From the IMG/VR virus record IMGVR_UViG_2690316269_000012: a DNA stretch of 35,124 bases. One strand, written 5' to 3'. Shown here piece after piece: positions 1,356-35,124 of the stretch; positions within the stretch are counted from its first letter, which is position 1; every line of letters starts with the position of its first letter. The stretch comes from a virus. Taxonomy: Duplodnaviria; Heunggongvirae; Uroviricota; Caudoviricetes. Below the pieces are notes generated by a model. That model did no database searches. It was not told the origin of the DNA and saw only the letters and a program-made list of their open reading frames with translations. The position numbers and the translations under genes are program-made.

Positions 1356-1384
1356 ATCATTACCTCAATTTAGCTCAAGTAAGA

Positions 1385-2035
1385 TTACAAATTAAAAAAC
1401 ACCCTAGAAATGGCACCGCCTACCAAAACCCCTACGCAGATAAAGAATATTATTTCTTTTGGATAAAGTCGGATTAATTCTGAAGCACGAAGTCGAACTT
1501 CTGGTAAGGCCGAACTCTCTGTGTGACTTGATGCCGATTGTTGCTCTAACCACGACAATGCAGACTGTAACTGAGAACGAGTAAGATCGTTTAAACGTCC
1601 TGTACCGAAATTGATATGGCAATACCGCAGAAGTTTTTGTCGAAGTCCACAGTCTTCACTGTTACGTAGTAATAAACTTACAAGAGTCTTACAGGCATCA
1701 TGATCTTTACATCGCTCAAGCATTGCATGCAGAAAACTCTCCGCTGTTTTATATTGATTTACTGTCATATCATCAATACCAGCTACACCAATCTCCGCAT
1801 GTACTTTTTGCCAAATAATAAACGCTTCAGTATTGCTAGCTTCTGCAATAGCAGCAACCAAGCTATTTAGCTCCTTACGCTGAGCCTTAAGCAAAGGGCG
1901 ATCGTCATCATCATTATTCGAAGGGATTGCGATATTGACGGTATGAGAACCATCATATCGCTCTATCTGAATATTCTTTTCGTGAAAATCACGCCCAGCA
2001 ACGCGATTGTTTGAACCGTTTGAGTTGACGGCCAT
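1385..2035 (-). CDS. membrane-anchored protein of unknown function (cargo)
   Basis: 216-aa ORF; soluble N-terminal region and a single C-terminal hydrophobic helix (IIFFICVGVLVGGAISRVFF); 15 nt downstream of the repressor stop. Confidence 0.55.
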   Translation of the reverse strand: MAVNSNGSNNRVAGRDFHEKNIQIERYDGSHTVNIAIPSNNDDDDRPLLKAQRKELNSLVAAIAEASNTEAFIIWQKVHAEIGVAGIDDMTVNQYKTAESFLHAMLERCKDHDACKTLVSLLLRNSEDCGLRQKLLRYCHINFGTGRLNDLTRSQLQSALSWLEQQSASSHTESSALPEVRLRASELIRLYPKEIIFFICVGVLVGGAISRVFFNL

Positions 2036-4595: not shown

Positions 4596-4985
4596 ATGAT
4601 TGACGCTCATGACTTCACAAGATGGGTGCGCACACAGGACACCCGTCTGGCTCCCGTTCTTCAGGGATTATTTGATCTCTACATCCGTGGTCGTGACAAC
4701 AGAGCACGCACCACAAAACCGGAGAATGCAGACACCCTTTATTTCACAGTAGACGACTGCTACCGCGTGGACTTCACACCACACGGGCTGGCGTTGCACT
4801 GCCTGACACCACACGGCGAATCACTGCTGGCGTATTACGACTCCCCGGCCTCCATATTTGCGGCAATGCTGGCGCATCGCACTGCTGGCGGGTGTGCCTC
4901 GCTGAGTGAATACTCCGCTGAATTTAACCGCCTTTCCGCCCTCTTCTCACAGGAGTGGCAGCGCGTGACGGGATACCAGCCATGA
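4596..4985 (+). CDS. hypothetical early protein (position of P2 B/orf8x genes)
   Basis: 129-aa ORF immediately upstream of and overlapping the gene A start. Confidence 0.5.
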   Translation: MIDAHDFTRWVRTQDTRLAPVLQGLFDLYIRGRDNRARTTKPENADTLYFTVDDCYRVDFTPHGLALHCLTPHGESLLAYYDSPASIFAAMLAHRTAGGCASLSEYSAEFNRLSALFSQEWQRVTGYQP

Positions 4986-7822
4986 GTGCGTTTGCATGGA
5001 GCTGGAATGAACCACGGCCAGCCATTGATCCGGCCAGATTTACGGAGCGCAGGCAGGAAACTGAAACCGACCTGCAACGCGCCATCCGTTACTACCTTGA
5101 GGCAAACAAAAGGGCACAGGAAGAACAGGAAGCGAAGGAAGAAGCCTTTTTCGCACAATCCACCGTGGGTAAAAAACTCATGGCATCCCTTGAGGAAGCC
5201 GGACAGCGTGAAAAGCTGGCACAAAGCATCATCAGCAAGCGTCAGGCAACAGAACAAGACCCGGTGGCCCGTGCTTTTGCCACACTGAAGGTGCTTCCCG
5301 TTTATCTGCGTGAACCTCTGAGCCGCCACCTCTCTTTTCTGCGCAAGAAGCAGGAAGCCGATCGTCAGAAAGGCAAAAAGAGCTGGCAGGCTGAACGCTA
5401 CGCGCGCGGAACCCTGCGCAAAATATTCGAACGTCTGGACCGCACCGACAGCCGCTGGCTGACACCGGGCTATCGCTCCCTTGCCGGACGCGAACGCCTG
5501 GACGATTTGCTTTACCTGCCGCAGCTCAACAAACACCAGATACAGACGCTGGCCACCATGACGGCGGCGATGTTCAGTGGCACTTTTGAAAAACTCTGCG
5601 ATGGCTTTGGCGCGACCGATGGCGAGCTGACCATGGATGTAACGCTGAAGGCGTATCAGATGCTGGCCCGCATGGCGTTACACCTGCACGCTATGCCTCC
5701 ACATTATGACGCTCTGACAACAGACAAAGACCGGAGGAATGAACCGGACACGGAGCTGCTGCCGGGCGCAATCCTTCGCCTGACCTGTGCGGAATGGTGG
5801 AAACGCAAACTGTGGCTGTTACGTTGCGAGTGGAGAGAAGAACAACTCCGCGCCGCCTGTCTGGTTTCCAGAAAAACATCACCCTATCTGAGCCAGGACG
5901 CGTTAAGCGAGTTTCGCGCACAGCGCGAGAAAACACGCGATTTCCTGAAAAGTTTCATGCTGGAAAACGAAGACGGGTTCACGATTGATCTCGAGACAGT
6001 GTATTACGCGGGAGTAAGTAACCCGATTCACCGTAAGGCAGAAATGATGGCCACCATGAAGGGGCTGGAACTTCTGGCCGAAGCCCGTGGCGACAGAGCG
6101 GTGTTTCTGACTGTCACCTGCCCGTCAAAATACCACGCCACAACAGAGAACGGTCATCCGAATCCCAAATGGAACGGGGCCACCATGCGCGACTCCAGCG
6201 ATTACCTGGTTAACACGTTTTTTGCGGCGGTCCGCAAGAAACTGAACCGCGACGGCCTGCGCTGGTATGGCATCCGCACGGTGGAGCCTCACCATGACGG
6301 CACCGTGCACTGGCATATGATGGTCTTTGCTCATCCGGAAGAAATCGACACCATTGTGTCCCACACCCGCGATATTGCCATTCAGGAAGACCGCCACGAG
6401 CTGGGCAATGATATTACTCCGCGCTTTAAGGTGGAGTATGTCGACGGCTCAAAAGGCACGCCAACCAGCTACATCGCCACCTACATCGGAAAGAACCTGG
6501 ACAGCCGCGCCGTGGATGGCATCGACCCGAAAACGGGCAAGCCACGCGTTGACCACGAAACCGGAAAATCAATGGCCGAGAGCGTGGAACGCGCCATCGG
6601 CTGGGCACGCCTTCACCGGGTCCGCCAGTTCCAGTTCTTTGGCATCCCCTCCCGTCAGGTATGGCGTGAACTCCGCCGCCTTGCCAGCCAGATGGCACGC
6701 AACCCGGAAGGCCCACAACGGCTGAAGGATGATGCAATGGATGCGGTACTCGCTGCCGCTGATGCCGGATGTTTTGCCACCTACATTGAAAAACAGGGTG
6801 GCGTACTTGTTCCGCGCAAGGACTACCTGATTCGCACAGCCTACGACCTCGCAGATGAGCTGAACGATTACGGCGAACAGAGTGTACAGATTTACGGGAT
6901 CTGGTCGCCATTCATCGGGGAATCCTCCCGTGTGTGCACGCATCCGGATAACTGGAAGCTGGTAAGACGTAAACCGGAAGCGGAAGACAGCGCCCGCGAA
7001 AATGGTTTTGACCTTCAGGGCGGCCCTGCCGCCCCTTGGACTCGTGGCAATAACTGTCCCCGTGTACAGGAAACAGGCAACAACGGGACAGAACAGCCGG
7101 AAGAACGGCCAGCACCGTGGCCGCAGCTTCCTGACGGCGTTGAAGTAAATGAATGGATGCGCTCACTGAAACGGCACGAACGCCGGGCGCTGATGCGTTC
7201 GCTTCGTGACAAACAGGCAAAAAACAGCAGCGATGAAATGCAGAACTGGACACAGAGCCGCAAACAGCAGCGGCCTTTGCCTGATAACCACGAGTTACTC
7301 GCTAAAGAATGGCGGGAGTCTGCTGAATCTCTCGGCCTGCATATCGGTGAACAACAGATGCAGCACCTGTTACGGGGCGGCAGTCTGTACGTTGACGGCA
7401 GCATCATTGCACCGCAGGGATTTGAAATTGTACGCAAACCGGATACCCGCCCGGACAGCCGAATCACGCAGCTCTGGCAGCGTCTGAGCCGTAATCATGG
7501 CGTAAGCAGCACGGAGATCCGCCATAACCCGGTCGCCAGCTATCTGGCACAGCTGGGGGCATCAGACCCTGAAGCCGCCGCACGCCTGGCATCCACACTT
7601 CAGCAGGACCAGAACACCATGAAAACACCCGTTACCGTGCTTTCTGACATGCTGCGCGCCATCCGCGACGCAGAGCACGCACAGAGAATCAGTGAAACCA
7701 CTGAACGCGCCAGCCGCAAAGCAGACCTGCTGCGGGGTGGCCTGACCAGTGGAAACAAAAAACAGACAGAAACGGGACTCACGAATCCCGTAAATGAGCA
7801 AAAAACGCGCAGCGATATATGA
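4982..7822 (+). CDS. A: rolling-circle replication initiator endonuclease (P2 gpA family)
   Basis: 946 aa from ATG at 4982; HUH-type motif (GTVHWHMMVF) and overall resemblance to P2 gene A product; longer than P2 A (about 761 aa) with a C-terminal extension. Confidence 0.88.
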   Translation: MSAFAWSWNEPRPAIDPARFTERRQETETDLQRAIRYYLEANKRAQEEQEAKEEAFFAQSTVGKKLMASLEEAGQREKLAQSIISKRQATEQDPVARAFATLKVLPVYLREPLSRHLSFLRKKQEADRQKGKKSWQAERYARGTLRKIFERLDRTDSRWLTPGYRSLAGRERLDDLLYLPQLNKHQIQTLATMTAAMFSGTFEKLCDGFGATDGELTMDVTLKAYQMLARMALHLHAMPPHYDALTTDKDRRNEPDTELLPGAILRLTCAEWWKRKLWLLRCEWREEQLRAACLVSRKTSPYLSQDALSEFRAQREKTRDFLKSFMLENEDGFTIDLETVYYAGVSNPIHRKAEMMATMKGLELLAEARGDRAVFLTVTCPSKYHATTENGHPNPKWNGATMRDSSDYLVNTFFAAVRKKLNRDGLRWYGIRTVEPHHDGTVHWHMMVFAHPEEIDTIVSHTRDIAIQEDRHELGNDITPRFKVEYVDGSKGTPTSYIATYIGKNLDSRAVDGIDPKTGKPRVDHETGKSMAESVERAIGWARLHRVRQFQFFGIPSRQVWRELRRLASQMARNPEGPQRLKDDAMDAVLAAADAGCFATYIEKQGGVLVPRKDYLIRTAYDLADELNDYGEQSVQIYGIWSPFIGESSRVCTHPDNWKLVRRKPEAEDSARENGFDLQGGPAAPWTRGNNCPRVQETGNNGTEQPEERPAPWPQLPDGVEVNEWMRSLKRHERRALMRSLRDKQAKNSSDEMQNWTQSRKQQRPLPDNHELLAKEWRESAESLGLHIGEQQMQHLLRGGSLYVDGSIIAPQGFEIVRKPDTRPDSRITQLWQRLSRNHGVSSTEIRHNPVASYLAQLGASDPEAAARLASTLQQDQNTMKTPVTVLSDMLRAIRDAEHAQRISETTERASRKADLLRGGLTSGNKKQTETGLTNPVNEQKTRSDI

Positions 7823-7898: not shown

Positions 7899-8858
7899 AT
7901 GAAAATTTACATCGACGACGGCTCCACCAACATCAAGCTGGCATGGACTGAGAACGGCGAACGCCGCAACGCCATCAGCCCGAACAGCTTCAAGTCGGAA
8001 TGGTCTGCGCCGTTCGGTGGCTCGCAGCCTGCTAACTACATGCTTGATGGCGTGCGCTATGGTTTTGATCCGGTCAGCGATCGCTTTGTCCAGACGACCG
8101 ACACGCAATACCAGTACAGCGATGTGAATGTCATTGCCATTCATCACGCGCTGGTCAAATCAGACATCACGCCACAGGAAGTGGATGTGGTTGTTACCCT
8201 GCCACTGAGCGAATATTTCGACACAAACGCACAGCCGGACATGGCCAACATCAACCGCAAAAAAGCGAACGTCATGCGCCCGGTGGAGTACCAGAACGGC
8301 GAAGCATTCACTATCCGTAACGTACGGGTTATGCCTGAATCCATTCCGGCTGGCTTTAAAGCACTGGCTGACATGAGTCCGTTTGAATCCCTGCTGATTG
8401 TGGATTTGGGCGGAACCACGCTGGATGTGGCAAAGGTTCAGGGGCAACTGGCAGGTATCAGCCAGGTGTTTTGCGATCCACACGTAGGCGTTTCTCTTAT
8501 GGCCGATGCCGTACTGTCGGTGATGGCCACTAACGGTATGCGCACCAGTCACCACATCGCCAATACCATTATCGAACATCGCCATAATGAAGCCTGGCTG
8601 CGCCAGCACATCCACAATGACGCGCATTACGCCAGCCTGATGGCGGTTATTCGTGAAAAGGAAGAAACACTGAAACAACGCGTGATCCGCGCGCTGGCGG
8701 TTTTTTCGGGTTACGGGCGGGTGATGGTTGTCGGTGGCGGGGCGGAGATTGTGGCACCCGCTATCCGCGAAGCCTGCGGAGTTAATGCGACTTTCATCGC
8801 GGACGGGGTGCCACAGTTTGCTCTGGTTAATGGGCTGTACGCAATGGACAAGGAGTAA
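7899..8858 (+). CDS. parM: actin-like segregation ATPase ParM/StbA
   Basis: 319 aa; N-terminus MKIYIDDGSTNIKLAW and later blocks (YSDVNVIAIHHAL, VMPESIPAG, LIVDLGGTTLD, VVGGGAEI) match plasmid R1 ParM closely from memory. Confidence 0.88.
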   Translation: MKIYIDDGSTNIKLAWTENGERRNAISPNSFKSEWSAPFGGSQPANYMLDGVRYGFDPVSDRFVQTTDTQYQYSDVNVIAIHHALVKSDITPQEVDVVVTLPLSEYFDTNAQPDMANINRKKANVMRPVEYQNGEAFTIRNVRVMPESIPAGFKALADMSPFESLLIVDLGGTTLDVAKVQGQLAGISQVFCDPHVGVSLMADAVLSVMATNGMRTSHHIANTIIEHRHNEAWLRQHIHNDAHYASLMAVIREKEETLKQRVIRALAVFSGYGRVMVVGGGAEIVAPAIREACGVNATFIADGVPQFALVNGLYAMDKE

Positions 8859-8862
8859 ACCA

Positions 8863-9174
8863 ATGACGACACCAACCAGACGGATAAGTTTCTATCTGAA
8901 GCCCGCCGCCGTCAAGAACGAAGGAGAAGCATGCGCCTGGCTGGACAGCCTTACACCAGAAGCCCGCAAAAGCGGCCAACGCGTGGCTTTTCTGGCCGGG
9001 CTGGCACTTCTGAAGACGAATCCGGCAGAGGCTTACCGACTGGCCGCATGGGCTGATGATGAGATGTTACCTGTGACACAAATCAGCTCAAAAAAGTTTG
9101 AAGCACAGTCTGCACCAGTGGCTAAGATAACCAGCCAGATGGCTGGGAATATCCGGGCGTTATTTCCTGAGTAA
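8863..9174 (+). CDS. parR: ParR-like centromere-binding adaptor
   Basis: 104 aa from ATG at 8863; ISFYLKP...LDSLTPEARKSGQRVAFLAGLAL and C-terminal IRALFPE resemble R1 ParR; directly follows parM. Confidence 0.8.
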   Translation: MTTPTRRISFYLKPAAVKNEGEACAWLDSLTPEARKSGQRVAFLAGLALLKTNPAEAYRLAAWADDEMLPVTQISSKKFEAQSAPVAKITSQMAGNIRALFPE

Positions 9175-10293: not shown

Positions 10294-11340
10294 TCAGGAT
10301 GTGGGCTGGGTATCTAGCAGTGCGTAAGGGTTAAAGCGGATCACCTCTTCGCCAAGCCAGTCATTGATGTGCTTCATGGCCTCCATGACGGGCATCAGCT
10401 CGTTAATTGCGTAAACCCGCGCGGCCTTCTCCACATCACCAAACGCACTTTTTTCGCCCGGCATCGCCCCCATCAGTTGCGGCGGAACGCGGTGCGCAGC
10501 CAGCACATCATCACGGGATGCCGCCTTAACATTCATGAACTCATCCTTTGCAGTGATCTGCTGGAACGGCAAAATTTGCACACCTTCTTTGCCCCCGTTG
10601 GGCGCATGGATGAGTACGTTTTTAAACGCACCACCACCACGCGCGCCCTGTAACGTTTCTTTCAGGGAGTCCATGCTTTCGCGGTTTACCTGCGCTGCAC
10701 CGATGTAGATGATGCACCCGGCGTGGGATCCGTTGTCGTAGTACAGTTTTCTGAACATGTCCGCCGAATGAGAAAGGCTGGCCGAGAGTAATGCGCCAAG
10801 ATATTCCGGCATGCCGTAGATTTCCTGGTTAATATCCGGATTCATCAGGTGGCACACTTTGCCAGGGCGAAACTGGAACGCGTCCTTGCCATCCTGCACA
10901 TACCACCATGATTCAAGATCGCTTCCGCGTCGCATGTATTTCGCCAGGGCGTGCCGTAATTTAAGCGGTTCGCCGAGCATATTGCTTCTAAGCTCAAGGA
11001 ATGCGTTACCGAACACAAACCAGTCCAGCGCCAGCGCCGAGAAATCCTGCCGGGAAAGCAGCGGGTGCGGGATGTAGCAACCGAGTAATACATTGCGCTT
11101 AAAGTAAAGCGCAGACTGATGCCAGGACGTTTGCCGGGCTGCTCTTGCCAGACCGTACCAGTCCACCGGGGTTTCATACCACCGTCCGTTATCAGCACAG
11201 TACATATTGTCCAGCAGGTCATGCCCGGTCAGGCGATAAGGACCATCAAATGTGAATGCACTGAGCGATGATTCTTTCCTGAGCGCATCAGCGAGATCAA
11301 TGCGTGAACTCATGCGCACTTTTTTATTTTTTCTGCTCAT
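10294..11340 (-). CDS. Q: portal protein (P2 gpQ)
   Basis: 348 aa; size and sequence character of P2 Q; stop/start abuts gene P. Confidence 0.9.
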   Translation of the reverse strand: MSRKNKKVRMSSRIDLADALRKESSLSAFTFDGPYRLTGHDLLDNMYCADNGRWYETPVDWYGLARAARQTSWHQSALYFKRNVLLGCYIPHPLLSRQDFSALALDWFVFGNAFLELRSNMLGEPLKLRHALAKYMRRGSDLESWWYVQDGKDAFQFRPGKVCHLMNPDINQEIYGMPEYLGALLSASLSHSADMFRKLYYDNGSHAGCIIYIGAAQVNRESMDSLKETLQGARGGGAFKNVLIHAPNGGKEGVQILPFQQITAKDEFMNVKAASRDDVLAAHRVPPQLMGAMPGEKSAFGDVEKAARVYAINELMPVMEAMKHINDWLGEEVIRFNPYALLDTQPTS

Positions 11341-13091
11341 CAGAACTCCATAACCGTGAAACGCTCGTTTTCTCCTTCGCCGCCAATCGGTTCGTTAATG
11401 ACAGCAAGCATGGTTGCCCACGCAAGGTCGCCGTGGCTGATCCCCCTCGCGCGGTCCGTTTCGTAAGTGATAAAGCCGCCCGGTGTTTTCACCTTACGCA
11501 CGGCGTTAAAGGCCGCGACCAGCTCGCGTTCGGCGCGATCGTATTCCCACCGCCCGGCACGCATTATTTGCAGCATTTTCAGTACCAGCGACCGTTTTGA
11601 TGACAGCGTGAAGGTGTACGGAATAGCAGCAGGGAAAAACCGTTTCACTATCTGATAAACAGCCTCCCCGTTCCCGCCCGTCACATCAATGCCGATGTGT
11701 TCCACGTTGTAGCGATACGTGAACTCTTCAATGACTCTGGCCTGTTCTTCAAACTCCAGCCCCTGAACGCGTCGCGTCTCCACCGTTCGAAAACGGCCAC
11801 CAAGAACAGCCGGAGGAACCACCACGGACACAGCGCCGCTGTCGCCGTTGCCACTACTGCCGTTTGCGTCATACCCAATCCATACCGGACGATTCCCCAT
11901 CGGGCGGGGAGCAAAAGGTTTCCAGTCTTTCCAGTCGTCGTATCCGTCAACACCGCAGCCAATCAGGATATTCAGGTTAAATGCCGATTCCCCTTCGCGG
12001 ACAAACTCACACATATAGAGATTGAGGAACTCGTCTTCGGTGTTTTCATCACGAATTTCGTCGATATCGGTGTGTTTCCAGCCGTGATTGACCACATCTT
12101 CCAGCGTGACAATTTGCCGCCACGTCCGGTCAGGGCAGATAAGCCCGTTATGCAGAGTTTTCCAGTCCACAGAAAAACGCTGGCGTTTATGCGTGGCCTT
12201 TTTCTCGTTCCAGCGGTCGCCGTTCCAGTAGGCGTATGCCTCGTGCGTTTCGGTGGATGGCGTGGAGAAGTAGGTGCGCCGCAGTCCGCTGAGGGTTGCC
12301 ATAGCGCCAGCCACCTTGCGCAGTTCAGCAAAGCGACTGACCCAGAAAAATTCATCAAAATAAAAATTGCCCGTATAGGACTGTGCCGACGCAGCAGAAG
12401 TGCCGAGAAAATGCAGCTCTGCGCCGTTGGAGAGGATGATTTTATCGCCCCCTTTCAGCTCCACATCAACTTCAGCCGCGGCCTTCTGAATAATGCTTTT
12501 AAACTGGAACGCCTGACGACGCGACGCAGACAAAAAAATCTGGTTACGCTGGTAAGGTTGCGCCACATCGTCACGCAGCGCCATCAGCAGAGCTTCCTGT
12601 GCAAAATACCAGGTCGCCCCAATCTGTCGGGATTTCAGGATCATCCTGTTACGTATCCCGGCTTCCCTGCAAAGGGTCAGGGAGTCAAACCAGCCCCGCT
12701 GATGCCACTCCAGCCTGCTGATGATTTTTTCCCGCAGTGCGGCAATCTGTTCCGGCGTGAAATGATTTTTGAGTTTTTTCGCCCGGCCTTTCTTTCCTGT
12801 GACCGTCGCATCCGGCTGGCCATCATGCAGTTTTTTAAGCTGCCGGGTCAGCAGGTCTATTTCCTTAAAGTCACCGCCTGTTTTATTCTGTTTTTCAGTA
12901 AGCTGGATGAGGCGCGCATCGATGGACTGCGTGACACGCTGCACGGGTGGCGTTTCATCCCACTGGTCGCGTTTTTTCCACGCATAAATCGTGTTCGGGT
13001 TTATTCCCATCAGACGTGATATTTCTGCGGGCGGATAACCCTGCCAGTAAAGTTGCCGCGCACGCTGGCGCACAAAAGCGTCCTGAATCAT
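11340..13091 (-). CDS. P: terminase large (ATPase) subunit (P2 gpP)
   Basis: 583 aa; N-terminal MIQDAFVRQRARQLYWQGY... and length match P2 P. Confidence 0.9.
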   Translation of the reverse strand: MIQDAFVRQRARQLYWQGYPPAEISRLMGINPNTIYAWKKRDQWDETPPVQRVTQSIDARLIQLTEKQNKTGGDFKEIDLLTRQLKKLHDGQPDATVTGKKGRAKKLKNHFTPEQIAALREKIISRLEWHQRGWFDSLTLCREAGIRNRMILKSRQIGATWYFAQEALLMALRDDVAQPYQRNQIFLSASRRQAFQFKSIIQKAAAEVDVELKGGDKIILSNGAELHFLGTSAASAQSYTGNFYFDEFFWVSRFAELRKVAGAMATLSGLRRTYFSTPSTETHEAYAYWNGDRWNEKKATHKRQRFSVDWKTLHNGLICPDRTWRQIVTLEDVVNHGWKHTDIDEIRDENTEDEFLNLYMCEFVREGESAFNLNILIGCGVDGYDDWKDWKPFAPRPMGNRPVWIGYDANGSSGNGDSGAVSVVVPPAVLGGRFRTVETRRVQGLEFEEQARVIEEFTYRYNVEHIGIDVTGGNGEAVYQIVKRFFPAAIPYTFTLSSKRSLVLKMLQIMRAGRWEYDRAERELVAAFNAVRKVKTPGGFITYETDRARGISHGDLAWATMLAVINEPIGGEGENERFTVMEF

Positions 13092-25141: not shown

Positions 25142-25747
25142 CTATTTATACAATACAACACCGCTCTTTTTAGTTATATATGTGCAGTTCGATGGTATAT
25201 CTTTATTTATAAAAGACATTGCACCTATTTTTACATTATCCCCAATTTTACGTGATAATCCAATGATGCAACAATTAGCTCCGATATCAACGTTACTACC
25301 AATTTTTACTCTTGAACCAGGCATGTCACCATCTATCTGTCCAATGGTAGTATTCTGTCGTAACACCAGATTTTCACCAGCATCAACAGCAAAATGAACA
25401 ACAATTCCAGCATGATGGGGAATTGTTAACCCTTTTCCAATATTTGCGCCCAATCCAATTTCACAACCAAATTTGTTAATTATTTTACTGTTTAACTTTT
25501 TGGCTGCTTTCTTATGTAATTTATTACCATTAATATACATTTCGTTAGCCAACCGCCACCAGAAAAGGAAATTCCGGTTACGCTGTTTTTTCTCTCTTAA
25601 AAGCCTCCAGATATCCATACGTTTCCGCCGAATTACTTCATATTTCCAGAAGTTTTTTAAATTAGTAGAGTCCCCAAATAAAACAAAGTGAATTGCCATT
25701 AAGTAAGACAGCACGATAATCTCCTTAATTATTATTTCAGACCACAC
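25142..25747 (-). CDS. hexapeptide-repeat (left-handed beta-helix) O-acetyltransferase, CysE/WcaB-like (cargo)
   Basis: 201 aa; tandem hexapeptide repeats (IGANIGKGLTI, IGSNVDIGANCCIIG, IGDNVKIGAMSFI); strongly AT-rich island 25100..25860. Confidence 0.75.
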   Translation of the reverse strand: MWSEIIIKEIIVLSYLMAIHFVLFGDSTNLKNFWKYEVIRRKRMDIWRLLREKKQRNRNFLFWWRLANEMYINGNKLHKKAAKKLNSKIINKFGCEIGLGANIGKGLTIPHHAGIVVHFAVDAGENLVLRQNTTIGQIDGDMPGSRVKIGSNVDIGANCCIIGLSRKIGDNVKIGAMSFINKDIPSNCTYITKKSGVVLYK

Positions 25748-25870: not shown

Positions 25871-26365
25871 TCAGAGCAGCCCCTTAACTGAGCTGGTCGC
25901 GCTATTAAGGGATGATGTCACCTTATCTTTGAAGCCGGACAACATATCGCTGAACGATGAGGATTGCAGGCGCTCCCGCAAATCCTCATCACAGCGTTCA
26001 AGAGTCAGTGAAAATTCTATCTTTTTCGCCTTACCGTAGCGATCAAACTCGGAGCGGGTCGTATTCGTTTCGGTCAGGACATACATGCCGTAAATCTGCC
26101 CGACGCCATCAATCAGAGGCCAGGGCCGTCCTGTATACGCCTGCGTGGTCAGCAGAGACAGCGACACTTCGCCACCTGTAATTTCAGGATAAAGCACACC
26201 AGAAAGAACGATGCGATCATCACCTGCACCGATATACTGCCAGCTTGCTGAACGGTTAACGCGTTCATTTTTCACATGCCGCCAGCTTTTGTTTTGCTGT
26301 AACTGCTGATGCGGCAGCGTGCGCAGCTCAAAAACAAACATGCCATAGATCATCATCATGGCCAT
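25871..26365 (-). CDS. U: tail protein U
   Basis: 164 aa; MIYGMFVF...LYPEITGG...WPLIDGVGQIYGMYV resembles P2 U. Confidence 0.88.
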   Translation of the reverse strand: MAMMMIYGMFVFELRTLPHQQLQQNKSWRHVKNERVNRSASWQYIGAGDDRIVLSGVLYPEITGGEVSLSLLTTQAYTGRPWPLIDGVGQIYGMYVLTETNTTRSEFDRYGKAKKIEFSLTLERCDEDLRERLQSSSFSDMLSGFKDKVTSSLNSATSSVKGLL

Positions 26366-26371
26366 GACTCC

Positions 26372-29215
26372 TCAATCTTTATCGTAAAAACTGCCACGCC
26401 CGGCACGGGCGCGCCGTTCCATTTCTGCCCTGACCATTTCACCGACCAGTTTCGCCAGTTCGCGGGGATTCTGCGTAACAACGTTATGCAGATGAACATG
26501 AATTTCACCGCCAAATCTGGAGACAGCAGGCTCCCGATTACGGGAAGCTGCAGGAACTGATGCCACTGGCGATCGTATGGCCTCCGCCACCGGGCGGGAG
26601 CTGGCCGCAACAACAGGGACCAGCGCCGGAGGCAGCGGAGCCGGGACTACGGGTGTGATATTAATTGCGGGGGCAGGCTTACTGACCTGCGCAATCTTCC
26701 GCTCCTGCCACTCCCCACGAACAGCAAGTGCGCGGGGCAGGTTCTTAAAGACAATATCGCCAGGGCCAATGCGTTTTTTCGTCTCATCAACCAGCTTACC
26801 TGTGTTATCAGCAATTTTGCTGAGTCTGCGTAGCGTCCCGGTATTGCTGTCTGTGAGCGGTTTGTTGTCTTTGGGTTTATCACCTCCGGTGCCATTGCCA
26901 TTTTCCACAGGCTTCGGCGGATTGATTTTCGCCAGGTCCCCCTGAAGTAAGGCAACCTTATCCTGAAGAATGGCCGCACGCTGTGCGTCTTCGATTTTCT
27001 TGCGCGCCCTTTCCGCTTCATCCGGAAGGACGCCAAGTTTTTCAAGTATCCACGCCAGCGTATCCAGTAGCATTTTTGCAGGTGTCAGAACAAGTTGTAA
27101 CGCACCGCCAAGAACGTTACCGAATATCTCGCCAGCACTGGTACATTTATCCAGCGTTTCCTTGCTGGACTCCATCGGTGACAGCAGCGATTTAAACCAG
27201 TTAAACACCTGGCTGATCCCGCTTCCGATTGCGTCAAAAACAGGGCCAAACCGTTCAAAGGTTTCACGCAACGGGTTCAGCCTTTCCATAATCCCGCTGA
27301 ACACCCCGGCAAAAAATGCCCTGATGGGATCCCAGTATTTCCAGATAAGGACGGCAGCTCCGGCAAGCGCAGCCACGATAAGACCAACCGGACTGAACAG
27401 CGCCCCGATAGCGCCTCCCAGTAAAGAAACGGAACCCGTCACCATTCCCCATAGTGCTGGCAGGACCCTGACAGCATTCATTGATCCGGTCAGGAGAGAA
27501 AAACCAAGACGCAGTTTTGCCAGCGGACCAGCAAGCACACCAATAGCCAGCGACAACGAGCCAACCGTTGCAGTCATTGCCAGCAACGCACCGCCTGCTA
27601 TCAGTAGCTGGCGCGTCAGTGCCGGATGGGCCTGCGCCAGCGCCGTCACCCTTGATACCACCCGCGTGAGCCACTGCGTGACAGAACGCAGCGGACCGTC
27701 AATCAGATCTGCAATGCGGATGCGCAACCCTTCCCATGCACTGCCGAGTGATTTCAGATCGCCGTCAAGGTTGTTGGCCATAACCTTTGCTGTGCGTTCA
27801 GCCTCACCGCGCGCGCCTTCAAGTTCTTTTCTCAGTTTGGGTAAGGAACCGTCACCCACTGCATCAACGAGCGCCATAAACGATGTGAAAGCCTCTTCTC
27901 CGGCAATGTCCTTAAAGAACGATACCCGGTCAACTTCCCCGTATTTGCGGGTGGCTTTATAAAGGTCGGCCAGCACATCCTCCATCGGGCGCATTTTACC
28001 CCCGGCATCCGAGACGGACACGCCCAGCTCTTTCAGAGCTTCTGCCGCCGCCTTTGGCGGTGATGCCAGACGAGCCAGGCTGGCACGCATTGCCGTCCCG
28101 GCATCACTCCCTCTGATGCCCATATTCGCCAGCACACCAGCCATCGCTGCGGCCTGCTCCAGCGATATTCCCAGCTTACCCGCCACCGGACCTGCATATT
28201 TCATGGTTTCGCCCAGTGCGCGAAGGTCAGTGTTGGTACGGGTAAACGCTGCGGTGAGTGTGTCACCGACCCGGTCCATCTGGTCAGCAGAAAGGCCGAA
28301 CTGCGTCAGGATATTTGAGCCAATATCTGCCGTCTCGCCGAGATCCATACCGCCAGCCGTTGCCATGCTCAGCACTCCGGGAAGCGCAGCCTGAATGGCC
28401 TGCGGTGTGAAGCCTGCCATTGCAAGAAATGCCTGCCCACTGGCGGCATCGCCTGCGGTGAACTGCGTTTCAGAGCCAAGTTTTAACGCCTGCTCACGCA
28501 GCGCCTTAAACTGCGGGCTGTTCTGGTCGATTCGCGTCAGCGCCTGAACGCGGGACATCTCTTTGCCGAACCCGATCGCGGGCTGCAAAAAACGCCCGGC
28601 AGCATAGCCGCCCGCCGCTGCCGCACCAATTGCCAGCGCACCACCTGTTTTCAGTTTTCCCGCGGTTTCCTGCGCGCGCGAATACCACTCACGCGCCCGC
28701 GTTACACGCGCAAGCGCCTGCCGTTCGCGTTCAAGCTGGTTGTTGTACTGTTCGGTGCGTCTGATGGCCTGCTGGATGGTGTTATCGCTGCCTGTCAGGG
28801 AAATGCCGTGGCGTTTCAGCTCTCCGCCAAGCTCCCGCATTTTCTGAATTTCCCGTGTGCGCGATTCATTCAGGCGTTCAAGCCGGGTGCTTAACTGCTG
28901 CATCAGCTTTTGTTGTTTTTCGCTGAGCACTGTACCCGTGCGTTGTAACTGATTAAGGGCGTTAAGCTGGCGTCGTGCTTTCACGATACCCGCATCCGCT
29001 TTACTGACAGCGTCGCGGGCGCGCTCAAATGAACGAGCCTGACGCTCGAGATTTTTAATCGCCCCCTGCGTTCGCTGGATGGAGTCACCAAACTGCCCCA
29101 TCAGGCGGCGGGCGTTTTCGGCAGGCCGGGTCAGCCTGTCAACGGCGCTGAAAGCGACCCGGATATCAAGAGTCTTCATTGTCTGCATTCCCGCTGCGAA
29201 GTGCCGCCCGCTCAC
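26372..29215 (-). CDS. T: tail tape measure protein T
   Basis: 947 aa; long, coiled-coil N-terminus and hydrophobic/Gly-Ala-rich central region; position. Confidence 0.9.
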   Translation of the reverse strand: MSGRHFAAGMQTMKTLDIRVAFSAVDRLTRPAENARRLMGQFGDSIQRTQGAIKNLERQARSFERARDAVSKADAGIVKARRQLNALNQLQRTGTVLSEKQQKLMQQLSTRLERLNESRTREIQKMRELGGELKRHGISLTGSDNTIQQAIRRTEQYNNQLERERQALARVTRAREWYSRAQETAGKLKTGGALAIGAAAAGGYAAGRFLQPAIGFGKEMSRVQALTRIDQNSPQFKALREQALKLGSETQFTAGDAASGQAFLAMAGFTPQAIQAALPGVLSMATAGGMDLGETADIGSNILTQFGLSADQMDRVGDTLTAAFTRTNTDLRALGETMKYAGPVAGKLGISLEQAAAMAGVLANMGIRGSDAGTAMRASLARLASPPKAAAEALKELGVSVSDAGGKMRPMEDVLADLYKATRKYGEVDRVSFFKDIAGEEAFTSFMALVDAVGDGSLPKLRKELEGARGEAERTAKVMANNLDGDLKSLGSAWEGLRIRIADLIDGPLRSVTQWLTRVVSRVTALAQAHPALTRQLLIAGGALLAMTATVGSLSLAIGVLAGPLAKLRLGFSLLTGSMNAVRVLPALWGMVTGSVSLLGGAIGALFSPVGLIVAALAGAAVLIWKYWDPIRAFFAGVFSGIMERLNPLRETFERFGPVFDAIGSGISQVFNWFKSLLSPMESSKETLDKCTSAGEIFGNVLGGALQLVLTPAKMLLDTLAWILEKLGVLPDEAERARKKIEDAQRAAILQDKVALLQGDLAKINPPKPVENGNGTGGDKPKDNKPLTDSNTGTLRRLSKIADNTGKLVDETKKRIGPGDIVFKNLPRALAVRGEWQERKIAQVSKPAPAINITPVVPAPLPPALVPVVAASSRPVAEAIRSPVASVPAASRNREPAVSRFGGEIHVHLHNVVTQNPRELAKLVGEMVRAEMERRARAGRGSFYDKD

Positions 29216-29695
29216 GCCAGCTAACCACTTCGCCGGGCGTCATCATGAAGATTTCGGCGGGCGACCAGTTAAAAATAACGGCAATATCTGCCACAAAGTC
29301 TTCTATGTGCTCAAAGCACACAACCGTGATCAGGCTTCCGTCGCCTGTTCGTTCTTCCCGCCAGAGTCCGCACCGCTCAAAAAATTTACGGCAACCACAC
29401 ATAACTGAATAAAGTCACGGGATGCCATTTTTTTGATCGTCACTTCATCCAGTCGCGGTGATGTCACGCGTGACAGCAGCGTAAACATGGATTCCGCTTT
29501 CAGATTCAGCACATCAGACAGCGACAAATCTCGCAAAGATCCAGCCTGCTCAATAGCCCCGGTGATCTCCACATACGTGATTTTTTCGCCGCCTCGCTCA
29601 ATTGGTTGGGTAAGTTTTACACCACGCTCACTGGTTTCTTTCACAGTGTCAGCAACTACCGTGTTTTCGGTATCGATGTTTTTCGTCTCTTTCAT
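29166..29695 (-). CDS. E+E': tail assembly chaperone E+E' (programmed -1 frameshift product)
   Basis: A -1 frame ORF (29166..29402) overlaps the 3' end of E and extends toward T; slippery heptamer T_TTT_TTG on the minus strand (complement of 29377..29383) lies in the overlap. Confidence 0.65.
29330..29695 (-). CDS. E: tail assembly chaperone E
   Basis: 121-aa ORF between FII and T; contains the slippery site near its 3' end. Confidence 0.8.
   Translation of the reverse strand: MKETKNIDTENTVVADTVKETSERGVKLTQPIERGGEKITYVEITGAIEQAGSLRDLSLSDVLNLKAESMFTLLSRVTSPRLDEVTIKKMASRDFIQLCVVAVNFLSGADSGGKNEQATEA
29377..29383 (-). other. slippery heptamer TTTTTTG for -1 ribosomal frameshift
   Basis: Codons AAT TTT TTG (N F L) of E in X_XXY_YYZ register. 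Confidence 0.65.
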
Positions 29696-29749
29696 CAGGA
29701 AACTCCTTTCAGTCAGAGGCGACGCACTGCGCCGCCTGCATATTACTTA

Positions 29750-30262
29750 TCAGCCAAGCCCGAGCGCGGAACGGATGCGATCGGGCACAATGTCCTTGCC
29801 GTCCTTCCGGTAAATGAAGTTCAGCAGGTCAATCTCCCACAACGGGCGATCGTTAACACTCAGCTTGTAGTAGGTGTTTTTAATGGCGTAAGTGTGTGAT
29901 GTGGCTTCGCCCTGTTTGGCTTCCCCCATATCAATTTCCGTCACACGTCCGCGCATTTCGACTTCATACAGGTCGCTTTCTGCATCGGTGTAATATTCAC
30001 CCGCAAAACGCAGCAGCGTGCCGTCAATCGTGCCGCCATACTTAAGGAACAGCTCACGAACTGCGCCCCCCATGACAAAGCTCGCATCAAGCGCGGAGTC
30101 GTCCAGACCGAGATCAATACTTACCGCACCCATCATGCCACCACCCCGGTAGCTGTCGGTTTTGCGCGTCAGCTTAGGCAGAGTGACGGACGTCACCTTA
30201 CCCACTTCGTTTTCACCATCCACAAACAGCGTAAAAAAGCGAAGATGTTTTGGTACAGCCAT
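29750..30262 (-). CDS. FII: tail tube protein FII
   Basis: 170 aa; size and position as P2 FII. Confidence 0.88.
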   Translation of the reverse strand: MAVPKHLRFFTLFVDGENEVGKVTSVTLPKLTRKTDSYRGGGMMGAVSIDLGLDDSALDASFVMGGAVRELFLKYGGTIDGTLLRFAGEYYTDAESDLYEVEMRGRVTEIDMGEAKQGEATSHTYAIKNTYYKLSVNDRPLWEIDLLNFIYRKDGKDIVPDRIRSALGLG

Positions 30263-31446
30263 CAGGCACCTCCCAGCACCGCAAATGCGGGTTCAAAGTA
30301 TTCATCAGTAAACGTCTGGTAAAGCTCCATGTCTTCCAGTGGCGGAACGGGCGTATATTTGTAGCGAATACGCACACGCCCCTGACGTAAATCCGTGGTG
30401 CTGTTATCCACCACGTCATACCAGCACTCCGCGCCAATCAGTTTCCCGGCAGTAACCAGCGAATCCAGTTTTGCCCTGATGGCACTGATAACATCCTTCA
30501 CGTTCGCAGGCGTCAGTGGACTGTCGATGGTTTCAAACTGCGCTTCCGCAATTGAATCAGCCAGCACCTGTGCGGTTCGGGTATACACCTCAAAGATGTA
30601 GGCGTTCGTTTCCGGTGTGCGGTTGCCCCAGAAGCGGAACCCGTTGCGACGAATAATGGTCGTGATTTCTTTGTTGTTGAGGCTGTTGGCATCACTGTCT
30701 TCGGCCTGCAACGACCAGAAAACATGCCTGGACATCCCCAGCACATTTTTAACAGGAACGTTGGACAGCGATTTGTGCCAGCCCTGCTCATGGTCAATGT
30801 ACGCACGAAGGCCGCACGCATAGGCAGGCGCGGGGAACGTTTCGTTTTTGCCACTTTTCGGGTTGTAGGCGATGAAGTCCGGCCATAAGAGCATCACCTC
30901 ACGTTCGTTGAATTTCTGGCGGTAGGTAATTGCCTCAGCCATCGTGTTACAGTCATGACATGAGGCATACACAAACGCGCGCAGTTTACCCGCAATCACG
31001 CACAGGGATTTTGTCACCGCCTCCGTGTCCAGCTCCGGCGCGGCCAGAATACGCGGACGGTATCCGATGCTTTCATCCTGCTCTGCAACAAGCAGCGCAT
31101 ACATCCCCGTATAGCTGCCGTCAGATTCAGAACCACCGATAACCAGTTGATCCTGCGTCTTACCGCCTTCTTCTTTGTGTTCAGCCACGCGAACGACGAT
31201 CACTTTTGTGCTCACCTGGTCTGCAATAGCCTTAAGCGCACGATAAAGCGTCCCCGTAGTCCCGCATTTTCCCAGCACGTCATTGACGCGGGTCAGCAGT
31301 GTGGGCTTGTTCAGCGGGAACAGCTCCGCGTCCGCATCATCCGCCGTTGCCACGATACCGATAACACTGGAATCAACATCATTAATCGCTGTTACCAGGT
31401 CGGTACTTTCCGTAACACGGGCACCATGAAAACGAGTTTCACTCAT
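30262..31446 (-). CDS. FI: tail sheath protein FI
   Basis: 394 aa; N-terminal region (ATADDADAELFPLNKP...TLYRALKAIADQ) resembles P2 FI. Confidence 0.92.
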   Translation of the reverse strand: MSETRFHGARVTESTDLVTAINDVDSSVIGIVATADDADAELFPLNKPTLLTRVNDVLGKCGTTGTLYRALKAIADQVSTKVIVVRVAEHKEEGGKTQDQLVIGGSESDGSYTGMYALLVAEQDESIGYRPRILAAPELDTEAVTKSLCVIAGKLRAFVYASCHDCNTMAEAITYRQKFNEREVMLLWPDFIAYNPKSGKNETFPAPAYACGLRAYIDHEQGWHKSLSNVPVKNVLGMSRHVFWSLQAEDSDANSLNNKEITTIIRRNGFRFWGNRTPETNAYIFEVYTRTAQVLADSIAEAQFETIDSPLTPANVKDVISAIRAKLDSLVTAGKLIGAECWYDVVDNSTTDLRQGRVRIRYKYTPVPPLEDMELYQTFTDEYFEPAFAVLGGA

Positions 31447-31603
31447 AGCTTCAGCCCCTTGTATCCGTTAAATGATTCGGCAACAATCATCACCCACCAC
31501 GCGCGTAATCTCACCCCTGCGCCGTTCTCCCGCCACGGCGACAACAAAAAGCAGTAACCCCCTATGCACGCACATGCGACCATGCCGCACAGGGAGGGAA
31601 CAG

Positions 31604-32704
31604 ATGACCGATACCACCATGCAATTGCTCAGTCAGAGCACAGACCCCGTGAAAATGCCGGATTTTGATATTCTCGCGGAGGGGGAAACACTGTCCGGCG
31701 TGGCAGAGCGCCTGATGAGCCTGTCACTGACCGACAACCGGGGATTTGAAGCGGACCTGCTCACCATCACGCTGGATGATGCGGATGGTCAGTTGCAGCT
31801 ACCGCCACGGGGCGCGCGCCTGACGGTTCTCATTGGCTGGAAAGGAGAACCGCTGACAGAAAAAGGCACTTACATTGTTGATGAAATCGCTCACGAAGGA
31901 CCGCCGGACAGGCTGACTGTTTCAGCCAGAAGCGCAGATTTTCGGGATGAATTTAACGTTAAACGTGAGGTGTCCTGGCATGATGTGACCGTTGAGCGCG
32001 TGGTATCCGCCATCGCTCATCGGTACGGTCTGAAACCACAAATCAGCGAAATGCTGATGGATATTGAAATCGACCACGCCGACCAGACCGAAGAAAGCGA
32101 CATGTCCTTCCTTACGCGCATGGCGGAAATGCTGGGCGCAATCACTACGGTAAAAAGCAGTAATCTGTTATTCATCATGCCAGGCGGTGGCGTGAACGCA
32201 CAGGGCCAGCCGTTGCCATCGTTCGCCATCACGCGCAGCAGTGGCGATCGCCATCAGTTCCGCATTGCTGACCGCGAAGCGTATACGGGGGTACGTGCTT
32301 ACTGGCTTGATCTTAATTACGGGAAAAAGAAAAAAGTCAGCGTGAAACGCCGCAAACCGAAAAAGGAGAAAAGCAGCAGCCGTGAAGGTGACTATATGGA
32401 AGGTGCGGAAGGCAACGTGTTTGTGTTACGCAAGACTTATCAGAACGAGCAGGCAGCAAGACGTGCAGCGGCGGCAAAGTGGCAGCAGCTACAACGCGGA
32501 GCCGCATCATTCTCCATCACGCTGGCGCGTGGACGCGCAGAACTCTATCCCGAAATGCATGGCACGGTGACAGGCTTCAAAAGTGACATCGATAATCAGG
32601 ACTGGATTATTGCAAAAGCCGAGCACACCATTGATAACAGCGGCTTTACCACACAGCTTGAGCTTGAAGCAAAAATCCCGGAATGGATAGCAGAAACAGA
32701 ATGA
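31604..32704 (+). CDS. D: tail protein D (late gene D)
   Basis: 366 aa from ATG at 31604 with AGGGAGGG RBS; size and position as P2 D. Confidence 0.85.
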   Translation: MTDTTMQLLSQSTDPVKMPDFDILAEGETLSGVAERLMSLSLTDNRGFEADLLTITLDDADGQLQLPPRGARLTVLIGWKGEPLTEKGTYIVDEIAHEGPPDRLTVSARSADFRDEFNVKREVSWHDVTVERVVSAIAHRYGLKPQISEMLMDIEIDHADQTEESDMSFLTRMAEMLGAITTVKSSNLLFIMPGGGVNAQGQPLPSFAITRSSGDRHQFRIADREAYTGVRAYWLDLNYGKKKKVSVKRRKPKKEKSSSREGDYMEGAEGNVFVLRKTYQNEQAARRAAAAKWQQLQRGAASFSITLARGRAELYPEMHGTVTGFKSDIDNQDWIIAKAEHTIDNSGFTTQLELEAKIPEWIAETE

Positions 32705-33103
32705 GCAAATTAGATGTATTGACTCAAACCAGAACTGACACACTCACAGCACAGTGCCAGACCCAATCTGGCAGCCCGCTTTGTGCCTAGAGCAGGTGTT
32801 GCTTATGTAACAGTTAATCCACGGATAGTGGTCATGAATGCTGGTTGAAGTTGTATTGCCATGAGTGGTCAATTAGGGACTCACTTATTATCGCGTGCTC
32901 ACCATTGATGGGTAAGATCATGCATTTCGGCTACTGTACTTCGCGAATCCTCCGCACACAGGCAACACCTGATTTAAGAACAGAGGGAGATGATGACGCA
33001 AGGAAGATTTATTATCGTGCATGTGGCAGATGATCTTTTAGCTGCCGGAGTGATAAATTACACCTATTTTCGATAAGTGTTTTTGTTATAGAACATTAAT
33101 TTC

Positions 33104-34243
33104 GTGGGAAACAATAAAGTGAAATTAGGAAGAAATGATAAGTGCTGGTGTAATTCAGGACTTAAGTATAAAAAGTGCCATCTTGGTCGAGATCGTGAAA
33201 CTCCGGTATCCAAAGCCGAGGCACTGAAATTTTCAAAGTCTCTCTCGCAGAGAAAGGCATGTTATGCGCCAGCATCCATGCACGAAGATTGTGATAAACG
33301 CATCGTTCAGGCGCATACGATATCTAAGAGCAGTAGCCTTAAGGCGATCGCCGACTCCAGCAATCACGTCATGGGGGTGATAATGAACTTAGCAAGCCTG
33401 ATGAGAAACAACGGAAAATGGCTTCCCGAGAAGATCGGTATCAATCAGGCATCCACTTTTACAGGATTTTGTGCAGTTCATGACAGAATCTTATTTTCAT
33501 GCCTAGAGAACGAAAAATTTACAGGCACGGACGAGCAGTGCTTTGCCTTAATGTTTCGTTCATTGTCTAAAGAAATTTATGCCAAAGAAGGGGGAGTGCT
33601 ATCTTCTGATTTTGCTAAAAATGCCGATAAAGGAAAGCTACAAGTTGAACAGTATTATATTCAGAAATTAATCGACCAGCACCAAAGTGGCTTAAATGCA
33701 GCAATAATTGAATTAAATAATCTTAAAACTAGCCTCGACCGCATCCTACTTAGCAGGCAATTTTCAGAAATTGAAAGTGTTATCTTCACTTTTGCAGAGC
33801 CTTTACCAATTGTAGTTTCGTCAATTCTTTCACCGGAGAGGGATTTCGATGGGACCAAAATTCAGGATTTGAGCGATCTTACAGTGTCGGCGGAACAAGT
33901 ATGTTTCAATGCTTTTTCCTGCGGAGGTAAGGGATATGTAGTGTTCAGTTGGCTGAGAACTTCAACAATTATCAGACGTTTTATACGGACACTAATTAAG
34001 ATCCCAGCTAACAGGATGTTCAATACCCTTCTGTATTTTTTCTTCACAAAGGCCGAAAATACATATTCATCCCCTGAGTGGTGGGACAGGCTCAGTGATA
34101 AACAGCGAGAGAATATCGGCAACATGATTATGTCAGGGGTTGAATTTTTTGGCATACCTACATCACAGGTTGATCATTCCGTTGATTATAACGCCGCTGC
34201 ACTTGAAGAGATAACATGCAGCAACAACGAAATTTGCAGCTGA
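33104..34243 (+). CDS. SEC-C-motif protein with uncharacterised C-terminal domain (cargo)
   Basis: 379 aa (GTG at 33104, or in-frame GTG at 33119); N-terminal LGRNDKCWCNSGLKYKKCH matches the SecA-type SEC-C zinc motif; remainder unrecognised; AT-rich island between D and ogr. Confidence 0.6.
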   Translation: MGNNKVKLGRNDKCWCNSGLKYKKCHLGRDRETPVSKAEALKFSKSLSQRKACYAPASMHEDCDKRIVQAHTISKSSSLKAIADSSNHVMGVIMNLASLMRNNGKWLPEKIGINQASTFTGFCAVHDRILFSCLENEKFTGTDEQCFALMFRSLSKEIYAKEGGVLSSDFAKNADKGKLQVEQYYIQKLIDQHQSGLNAAIIELNNLKTSLDRILLSRQFSEIESVIFTFAEPLPIVVSSILSPERDFDGTKIQDLSDLTVSAEQVCFNAFSCGGKGYVVFSWLRTSTIIRRFIRTLIKIPANRMFNTLLYFFFTKAENTYSSPEWWDRLSDKQRENIGNMIMSGVEFFGIPTSQVDHSVDYNAAALEEITCSNNEICS

Positions 34244-34532
34244 ATGTTTACATGCTGTTAGAAAAAGCGGGCTGAACAATCATTTCGGGATTGTAACAGA
34301 TAAGATGGCACTGCCCGCTTGCTTCCCGATATGCACCTCAGCCAATAAACTTATGTAAGCAACCGATTTCCATTTATGCGGAGGTTATCAAAGTTGTTGG
34401 AGTTGCGAACTTCCGCTCTTCGCACAAAGCGTACCGCTAGGTTTGATTGTATTCTGGCTGCGCAAACTGTCAGTTGGAGTCTGAGCTATTACAACTTAGA
34501 ATAGCGGCAGCACCACGTTAAGGGAGGTCGCT

Positions 34533-34793
34533 ATGTTCCGTTGTCCGCTTTGTGGCGCATCTGCCCGAATCCGCACCAGTCGTCCGGAAAACGATTCAAA
34601 CACTGTGCGGCAAAAGTATTACCAGTGTAACAACCTGGAATGCGGCGTATGCTTCTCAACACTGGAAGCTTTCCATAAATTCACATCAAAACACGCCTCC
34701 GGCGTTCACTCTTCGGAAGGTATCCCGTGGCATGAGCTGCCAGCTTCACACAGGGGAAACAATCAGATGAGTTTGCCTTTACCTCAGAATTAA
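34533..34793 (+). CDS. ogr: zinc-finger late-gene transcriptional activator (Ogr/Delta family)
   Basis: 86 aa; MFRCPLCGASARIRTSR...YYQCNNLECG matches the Ogr C2-C2 zinc-finger pattern. Confidence 0.88.
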   Translation: MFRCPLCGASARIRTSRPENDSNTVRQKYYQCNNLECGVCFSTLEAFHKFTSKHASGVHSSEGIPWHELPASHRGNNQMSLPLPQN

Positions 34794-34983
34794 CAGGCAG
34801 AATTGCCGGAGTAACAAAAAAACGATAGATTACCCGCGGGTGCCTTTCGGCTGATGGTCGGAGGAATACCCGAAGGCCGGATGTGGAAAGGCCCCGGAAA
34901 ACATTTCTGTTTAACCGAGGCCCTAACATATCTACCTTAAGCAAGTGATAGGTTAGCGCCTCTCCAACAAAGGAGCAAGCGCT

Positions 34984-35124
34984 ATGTCGCAAAAATCGCT
35001 TACAGCCATCACGTTCTGCGTGACGGTAATCCTCATCATCTGGATGCTACACGGTTCGCTGTGTGAAATACGGATGAGCTTCTGGGGAGCGGAGTTTGCG
35101 GCGTTCTTACAGTGTAAGCAGTAA
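34984..35124 (+). CDS. Hok/Gef-family type I toxin-like small membrane protein
   Basis: 46 aa; N-terminal TM helix then SLCEIR...AEFAAFLQCK, matching the Hok-family signature; stop codon is the last three bases of the window. Confidence 0.5.
   Translation: MSQKSLTAITFCVTVILIIWMLHGSLCEIRMSFWGAEFAAFLQCKQ

Follow-up and report, generated by a model that had tools for sequence, protein, structure and literature searches.

What does a single AT-rich gene contribute between two conserved late genes of a P2-like prophage, and does it represent, as a sequence-only reading of the locus had proposed, an undescribed anti-phage system? The window, i.e. the whole stretch of 35,124 nucleotides that was analysed, comprises an entire P2-like E. 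coli prophage with an integrase (1..1002, minus strand), gpA (4955..7822), the portal (10294..11340, minus strand), the large terminase gpP (11340..13091, minus strand) and gpU (25871..26365, minus strand). The left anchor of the locus is the P2 gene D encoding the tail/baseplate hub (31472..32704, plus strand; PF05954 Phage_GPD, E=1.1e-17), for which the longest ORF starts at 31472 and the RefSeq relatives at around window position 31604, and the product of which is annotated as 'phage late control D family protein' in E. coli relatives. The right anchor is the late-gene activator ogr (34533..34793, plus strand; PF04606 Ogr_Delta, E=5e-14). In a prophage of E. coli ST69 (L001) this junction is empty: with flanks that are 97% identical, window positions 31900-32714 and 34493-35000 are contiguous apart from a few bases of microhomology in the blastn alignment, and the D-ogr spacer measures 42 bp. 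Relative to this empty site the insert extends over ~32715..34492 (1,778 bp by blastn) and holds a single long ORF of 379 aa on the plus strand, with a GC content of 0.423 for the insert and 0.412 for the ORF versus 0.524 for the rest of the window, and a GC3 of 0.41 versus 0.58 for D. The initial description of an AT-rich stretch of about 1.8 kb that carries one 379-aa gene is thereby confirmed.

The ORF (33104..34243), which homology and dN/dS support as a gene, begins with GTG. A second GTG at 33119 (MKLGRN...) would give a product of 374 aa, matches the start in most distant homologs and may be the true start; every enterobacterial allele retains the GTG at 33104, and at the position of 33119 one E. 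coli allele reads GAG. As had been claimed, the N-terminus carries a SEC-C zinc-binding motif, GRNDKCWCNSGLKYKKCH (33131..33184, plus strand, aa ~9-27), with the residues C14, C16, C25 and H26, a match to PF02810 with E=2e-8 and 34.4 bits versus a cutoff of 20.4, and a match as well to the C-terminal SecA peptides 1ozb, 1sx0 and 1tm6. The remaining ~350 aa have no family match beyond SEC-C in Pfam, PADLOC, PHROGs or NCBIfam. The AF2 model of the protein is confident, with a fold that finds no counterpart in the PDB and no match at E<=0.001 in the viral structure library BFVD.

The protein is no orphan: its whole body is homologous to the lactococcal protein Rugutis. A tblastn search of a plasmid collection retrieved dairy plasmids of Lactococcus including pUCCL633A of strain UCCL633, the sole SEC-C protein of which is exactly 359 aa long (L010:2995-4074); from the strain and plasmid name, the exact length and the motif we infer that this ORF is Rugutis (pUCCL633_059). 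BLASTP aligns aa 5-347 of the prophage protein with aa 3-336 of the 359-aa Rugutis at 26% identity (E=3e-37), and hhalign assigns the pair a probability of 99.96% (E=7e-39). Judged by these alignments, the prophage protein is almost certainly a full-length member of the Rugutis family. Both are single-gene products of ~360-380 aa with an N-terminal SEC-C motif, end-to-end homology, carriage on mobile elements and a confident AF2 model without PDB counterpart, and Rugutis itself equally consists of SEC-C followed by a body without a known domain in the HMM libraries. The two proteins differ in the SEC-C site, which is CCCC in Rugutis and CCCH in the prophage protein, and in their carrier, a dairy plasmid as compared to a P2-like prophage in a Gram-negative host, and their identity amounts to only 26%.

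Rugutis is a validated single-gene antiphage system of Lactococcus (Grafakou et al., 2024, PMC11381338; Mosterd et al., 2025, PMC12184496). It confers phage resistance on L. cremoris without affecting adsorption and DNA injection, protects against unrelated virulent phages, and displays an Abi-like phenotype with protection at low MOI and collapse at high MOI, while its constructs were unstable in, or could not be introduced into, some hosts (PMC11381338). Mutations by which phage c2 escapes Rugutis fall in the large-terminase ATPase domain, and expression of the c2 TerL is more toxic in Rugutis-carrying cells, with mutant TerL still being toxic (PMC12184496). According to a 2026 review, the effector is unknown and the PDB contains no such fold, and a 2026 genome paper reports Rugutis in neither PADLOC nor DefenseFinder. 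Our PADLOC v2 scan, in which the prophage protein and Rugutis match only the SEC-C tails of E2/E1-E2 models, fits this reported absence. The gene is thus not of an undescribed kind, since its family has been described and tested in Lactococcus in 2024-2025, but the anti-phage role proposed for it is the preferred reading, given the full-length homology to a validated defence protein; by analogy with Rugutis, it probably acts as a defence gene in E. coli. By sequence, the Gram-negative, prophage-borne gene would accordingly count as a new member of a known antiviral family and not as a categorically new system.

Which part of the protein might carry the activity is indicated by an alignment of proteobacterial members, an alphaproteobacterial plasmid member, Rugutis and three relatives without SEC-C from plasmids of Klebsiella (pKPN5), Priestia and Bradyrhizobium. 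Invariant are C53, C63, H71, L79, I82, G112, F122, C123, H126, D127, F131, E135, R152, E157 and D247, near-invariant Q254, E318 and N319, and the prophage protein keeps every invariant residue of the family; C53, C63, H71, C123, H126, D127, E135, R152, E157 and D247 form the invariant core shared with Rugutis. Much of this set falls into the core segment 33260..33574 (plus strand; alignments A1 and A2), which in the AF2 model has C123 and H126 at the start of helix 124-135 and bears a C...C...AH ... GFCxxHD pattern, on account of which HNH/His-Me finger nucleases were considered; D247 and the near-invariant E318-N319 follow downstream of it. From these residues the segment is a candidate for a second metal site plus a catalytic or ligand site, with the function of the individual residues deduced from conservation; an enzymatic core with a second metal site is conceivable, at a confidence that stays somewhat short of even. 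As the distant relatives that lack SEC-C retain the core, the knuckle appears by sequence to be the accessory and the core the conserved unit. The SEC-C motif of the prophage protein also matches the C-terminal ends of the PADLOC E2/E1-E2 models PDLC00833, PDLC00865, PDLC00872 and PDLC00871 as well as the PADLOC candidate PDC-S12, and these matches suggest that immune proteins repeatedly make use of SEC-C knuckles as accessory modules.

The same motif is the starting point for a different reading, namely a non-defence moron, i.e. a lysogenic-conversion or housekeeping-like SEC-C protein with a role in the Sec machinery or in host metal handling. SEC-C, the sole recognisable motif, is known from SecA, YecA and YchJ, RefSeq labels the protein 'YecA family protein', and another hotspot of this prophage holds the non-defence cargo ParM/StbB. 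YecA and the C-terminal metal-binding domain of SecA, however, have only the ~20-residue zinc knuckle in common with the prophage protein; it is located at their C-terminus and at the N-terminus here, where neither a UPF0149 nor a SecA body follows and the rest is unrelated. Membership in the YecA family was rejected on these grounds, with the NCBIfam YecA-type model NF007704 matching only over its last 24 positions (profile positions 197-220/221; 17.9 bits versus a cutoff of 149). With SEC-C missing from distant members that keep the core, an entire body homologous to a protein of demonstrated anti-phage activity, and a gene that resides on mobile elements beside defence genes rather than in a conserved chromosomal operon, we consider a moron of this type improbable. 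A kinship with DUF4238 (Rst_DUF4238, PF14022) was likewise discarded, as there is no Pfam match and hhalign gives a probability of 0.18% against a Citrobacter DUF4238 protein.

Is the D-ogr junction a permanent residence of this gene or a site of exchange? A 3.1-kb span from D to hok was searched against 5,426 complete E. coli genomes, of which 1,287 matched the flanks and only 80 harboured the insert. Of 60 rows sampled evenly down the ranking, both flanks were present in 50, and 28 of these junctions were empty (~56%; matched span ~1.32 kb), four carried this gene and 18 carried one of seven other cargos, such that at least eight alternative single-gene cargos, the Rugutis-family gene included, use the junction. 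The other cargos (L002..L008) encode a GmrSD_N+HNH protein of 527 aa, a PIN_4 protein of 500 aa, a ParA/AAA_31 protein of 352 aa with a weak match to PADLOC PDC-M28B, a DUF3800 protein of 389 aa, and hypothetical proteins of 221, 295 and 384 aa, for which no Pfam or PADLOC match was obtained. Breakpoints cluster within ~100 bp on the left (window 32688-32795) and within 30 bp on the right (34465-34493). Four of the eight cargos have the same orientation as D and four the opposite one, and this mixed orientation implies that the cargos possess their own promoters. With conserved flanks, unrelated alternatives and empty sites, the D-ogr junction is a variable cargo slot, and the proposal of a single, horizontally acquired gene at a variable position is borne out.

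Cargo hotspots of P2 lie between gpA and the portal (old/tin) and at Z/fun (Rousset et al., 2022, PMC9122126); in the text searched of this paper ogr and gpD are not mentioned. A 2024 preprint refers to a 'third hotspot between a tail protein and CI', which would include the D-ogr interval, and a 2026 preprint to minor hotspots near att/int and within late genes, so that the D-ogr slot is at most loosely described in the literature searched. In common with the P2 hotspots, it is a short locus between conserved phage genes whose AT-rich cargo, mostly single genes of defence type, is frequently replaced and lies in either orientation; it differs by its location elsewhere, next to attR. The gpA-portal hotspot of this very prophage carries ParM/StbB instead of defence genes.

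Beyond E. coli the family is large and mobile. Around 300 homologs, most of 366-387 aa, are found in a collection clustered at 90%, with hosts among the Enterobacterales, Psychrobacter, Pseudoalteromonas, Aeromonas, Halomonas, Pseudomonas and others, and a profile search of 1.84 billion representatives retrieved 1,473 clusters (50% identity) at E<=1e-30 and 3,506 at E<=1e-10. In eleven contexts the neighbours are unrelated and a conserved partner is absent, with the gene flanked by intergenic DNA in most; the family gene is a lone gene in mobile contexts. A P4-like satellite of Salmonella (L011) has it just after the integrase and also carries PARIS (AAA_15/21 + DUF4435), and a Citrobacter island (L016) has it together with HEPN-RES, HEPN_Swt1, DUF6932 and DUF4238 genes. 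More distant members are located at the edge of a Klebsiella aerogenes prophage, by themselves amid housekeeping operons in Aeromonas, in the vicinity of a zeta toxin in Pseudomonas and of a resolvase in Pseudoalteromonas, on an AlpA/H-NS island of E. coli, on plasmids of Shinella, Sphingomonas and Lactococcus that are conjugative or mobilisable, and immediately upstream of the integrase in a P2-like prophage of Providencia. Among P2-like prophages the family occupies two hotspots. The unannotated records of the Listeria phages LM 4-11-1 and LM 4-14-1 (OR846759.1, OR848108.1) encode a protein resembling Rugutis, with 29% identity over aa 2-284 (E=2e-25), so that the family is phage-borne in Firmicutes, too. 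The relatives that share the core and lack SEC-C are more distant (L017:2992-4134 on Klebsiella pKPN5, L018 and L019); the gene on the IncR plasmid pKPN5 is preceded by genes for a P-loop NTPase and a 260-aa hypothetical protein and may represent a multi-gene variant of the system.

These contexts bear on the possibility that the gene serves as a weapon between elements, directed against P2-like phages or P4 satellites, or as an addiction-type toxin that stabilises its element, rather than in broad host defence. One and the same module resides in P2-like and in P4-like elements, the Lactococcus homolog senses the terminase, and packaging is the step contested by P2 and P4, as P4 uses the P2 terminase; the unstable or unintroducible Rugutis constructs hint at an intrinsic toxicity. 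An antitoxin-like partner, on the other hand, adjoins the gene in none of the contexts examined, Rugutis protects against unrelated virulent phages, and a weapon between elements would be a special case of defence and not a separate function. We regard this reading as unlikely, though a little less so than the moron.

That the gene could instead be an inactive relic, a decaying passenger without current function, might be concluded from the empty D-ogr sites in more than half of the related prophages and from the IS4-like ISVsa5 transposase inside the D-SEC-C-ogr span of the E. coli O111:H11 genomes NZ_CP077567.1 and NZ_CP077491.1, where the match is split in two. The ORF is, however, intact and 99-100% identical in the 80 complete E. 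coli genomes, many of them O103/O111-type strains, and the comparison with four diverged alleles (Salmonella, Citrobacter, a second E. coli and Pantoea; ~85-86% protein identity) yields a dN/dS of 0.13-0.16 at a dS of ~0.5, which argues that the gene is under purifying selection. This selection together with the full set of invariant residues excludes a relic for practical purposes, and only a very slight chance is left to it.

The gene does not travel alone. A mobile module of 5' flank, ORF and 3' flank (~32780..34390, plus strand, ~1.6 kb) recurs with 83-85% nucleotide identity on the Salmonella P4-like satellite (window 32798-34390) and the Citrobacter conflict island (window 32778-34309). 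The conserved 5' region (32798..33103, plus strand; alignment A3) presumably is promoter and leader; it has a pairwise JC distance of 0.21-0.33, which, being below the gene dS of ~0.48, suggests modest constraint. It is non-coding, as an upstream 62-aa ORF (32845..33033) is broken by a 12-13 bp indel in the Salmonella and Citrobacter copies and was dismissed as a gene. Of the suggestion that the upstream ~400 bp are a regulatory signal of the gene's own, the co-travelling of ~325 bp with the ORF is retained, but the scan of the plus strand upstream of the gene detected no consensus sigma-70 site, Rfam gave no match for a structured RNA or riboswitch, and the covariation term of RNAalifold, calculated from three sequences only, was unfavourable. 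The nested hairpins downstream, which had been read as further regulatory signals, fare worse. An imperfect inverted repeat does follow the stop codon (34265..34320, plus strand), with the outer arms AAGCGGGC at 34265-34272 and GCCCGCTT at 34313-34320 and the inner arms ACAATC/GATTGT, but its fold is not more stable than that of 200 shuffled sequences (z=-1.8, 10/200 as good), the repeat has no T-run, and of the outer 3' arm the Citrobacter copy retains nothing and the Salmonella copy a degenerate form, so that a terminator was rejected.

Taken as a whole, the insert is probably an anti-phage module of the Rugutis family that was acquired horizontally, is self-contained with its single gene and occupies a variable D-ogr slot. 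Following the Lactococcus work, the protein would be expressed in the lysogen from the 5' region of the module and, once phage DNA has been injected, would combine sensor and effector of an abortive-infection type in a single chain. Triggered by a late protein of the invading phage (the large-terminase ATPase domain in Lactococcus), it would arrest or kill the cell before progeny is released. TerL as the trigger in E. coli is put forward by analogy and tentatively, at less than even confidence. The toxic, perhaps metal-dependent, activity may with low confidence be placed in the conserved core, where C53, C63, C123 and H126 would form a probable second Cys/His metal site beside H71, D127, E135, R152, E157 and D247 in a fold without solved counterpart, and the N-terminal SEC-C knuckle would serve docking or regulation as an accessory that can be dispensed with. 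A bolder version, which we hold to be rather doubtful, considers the core, with its CCCH metal site and His/Asp/Glu/Arg cluster, an unseen enzyme or effector fold activated by the phage packaging ATPase, and SEC-C a recurrent immune docking module that guides such proteins to ribosomes or SecB, where they would meet new phage proteins. If the protein were indeed a sensor of the packaging ATPase, the terminase of the P2 prophage that carries it would have to escape recognition by this resident sensor. With terminase-sensing defence, i.e. the Avs family and lactococcal Rhea, the prophage protein would by analogy with Rugutis share a TerL ATPase-domain trigger and an Abi-type outcome, but it differs in that it has no STAND, NTPase or recognisable effector domain, and a sequence or fold relationship was not detected.

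So far Rugutis has been studied only in Lactococcus, with effector chemistry and fold unexplained, and a homolog on an E. coli P2-like prophage would open the problem to the best available genetic system for phage panels, selection of escapers and terminase genetics, with a portable module defined at 1.6 kb. The RefSeq label 'YecA family' is wrong, and this mislabel together with the reported absence from PADLOC and DefenseFinder renders the family invisible to defence censuses. The D-ogr slot is filled in ~40-45% of the sampled prophages, and most of the alternative cargos, i.e. PIN_4, DUF3800, ParA-like and hypothetical proteins, are uncharacterised single-gene defence candidates.

The prophage shows further peculiarities. 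P2 has the co-linear gene order FI…U-D-ogr, from which the arrangement here differs: the tail genes FI-FII-E-T-U (25871..31446) are on the minus and D and ogr (31472..34793) on the plus strand, and the sheath gene and D have divergent starts ~160 bp apart. Next to the integrase, the interval 1008..2035 (minus strand) contains a 216-aa ORF without Pfam match and a 115-aa ORF without PADLOC match, which are possibly further defence or moron cargo. At a Z/fun-like position after the tail-fibre genes, a 201-aa ORF (25142..25747, minus strand) with a weak hexapeptide-transferase match lies where the window is richest in AT (GC 0.34) and may be an acetyltransferase moron. The gpA-portal (old/tin) hotspot (7899..9174, plus strand) holds ParM (StbA_N + ParM) and a StbB-like partition gene and no defence system, and from these two genes the prophage may be maintainable as a plasmid. 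Just downstream of ogr, a Hok/Gef-type toxin ORF with an SLCEIR motif (34984..35124, plus strand) runs off the end of the window; it is annotated as Hok/Gef family in all RefSeq relatives and is kept even in records without D and ogr.
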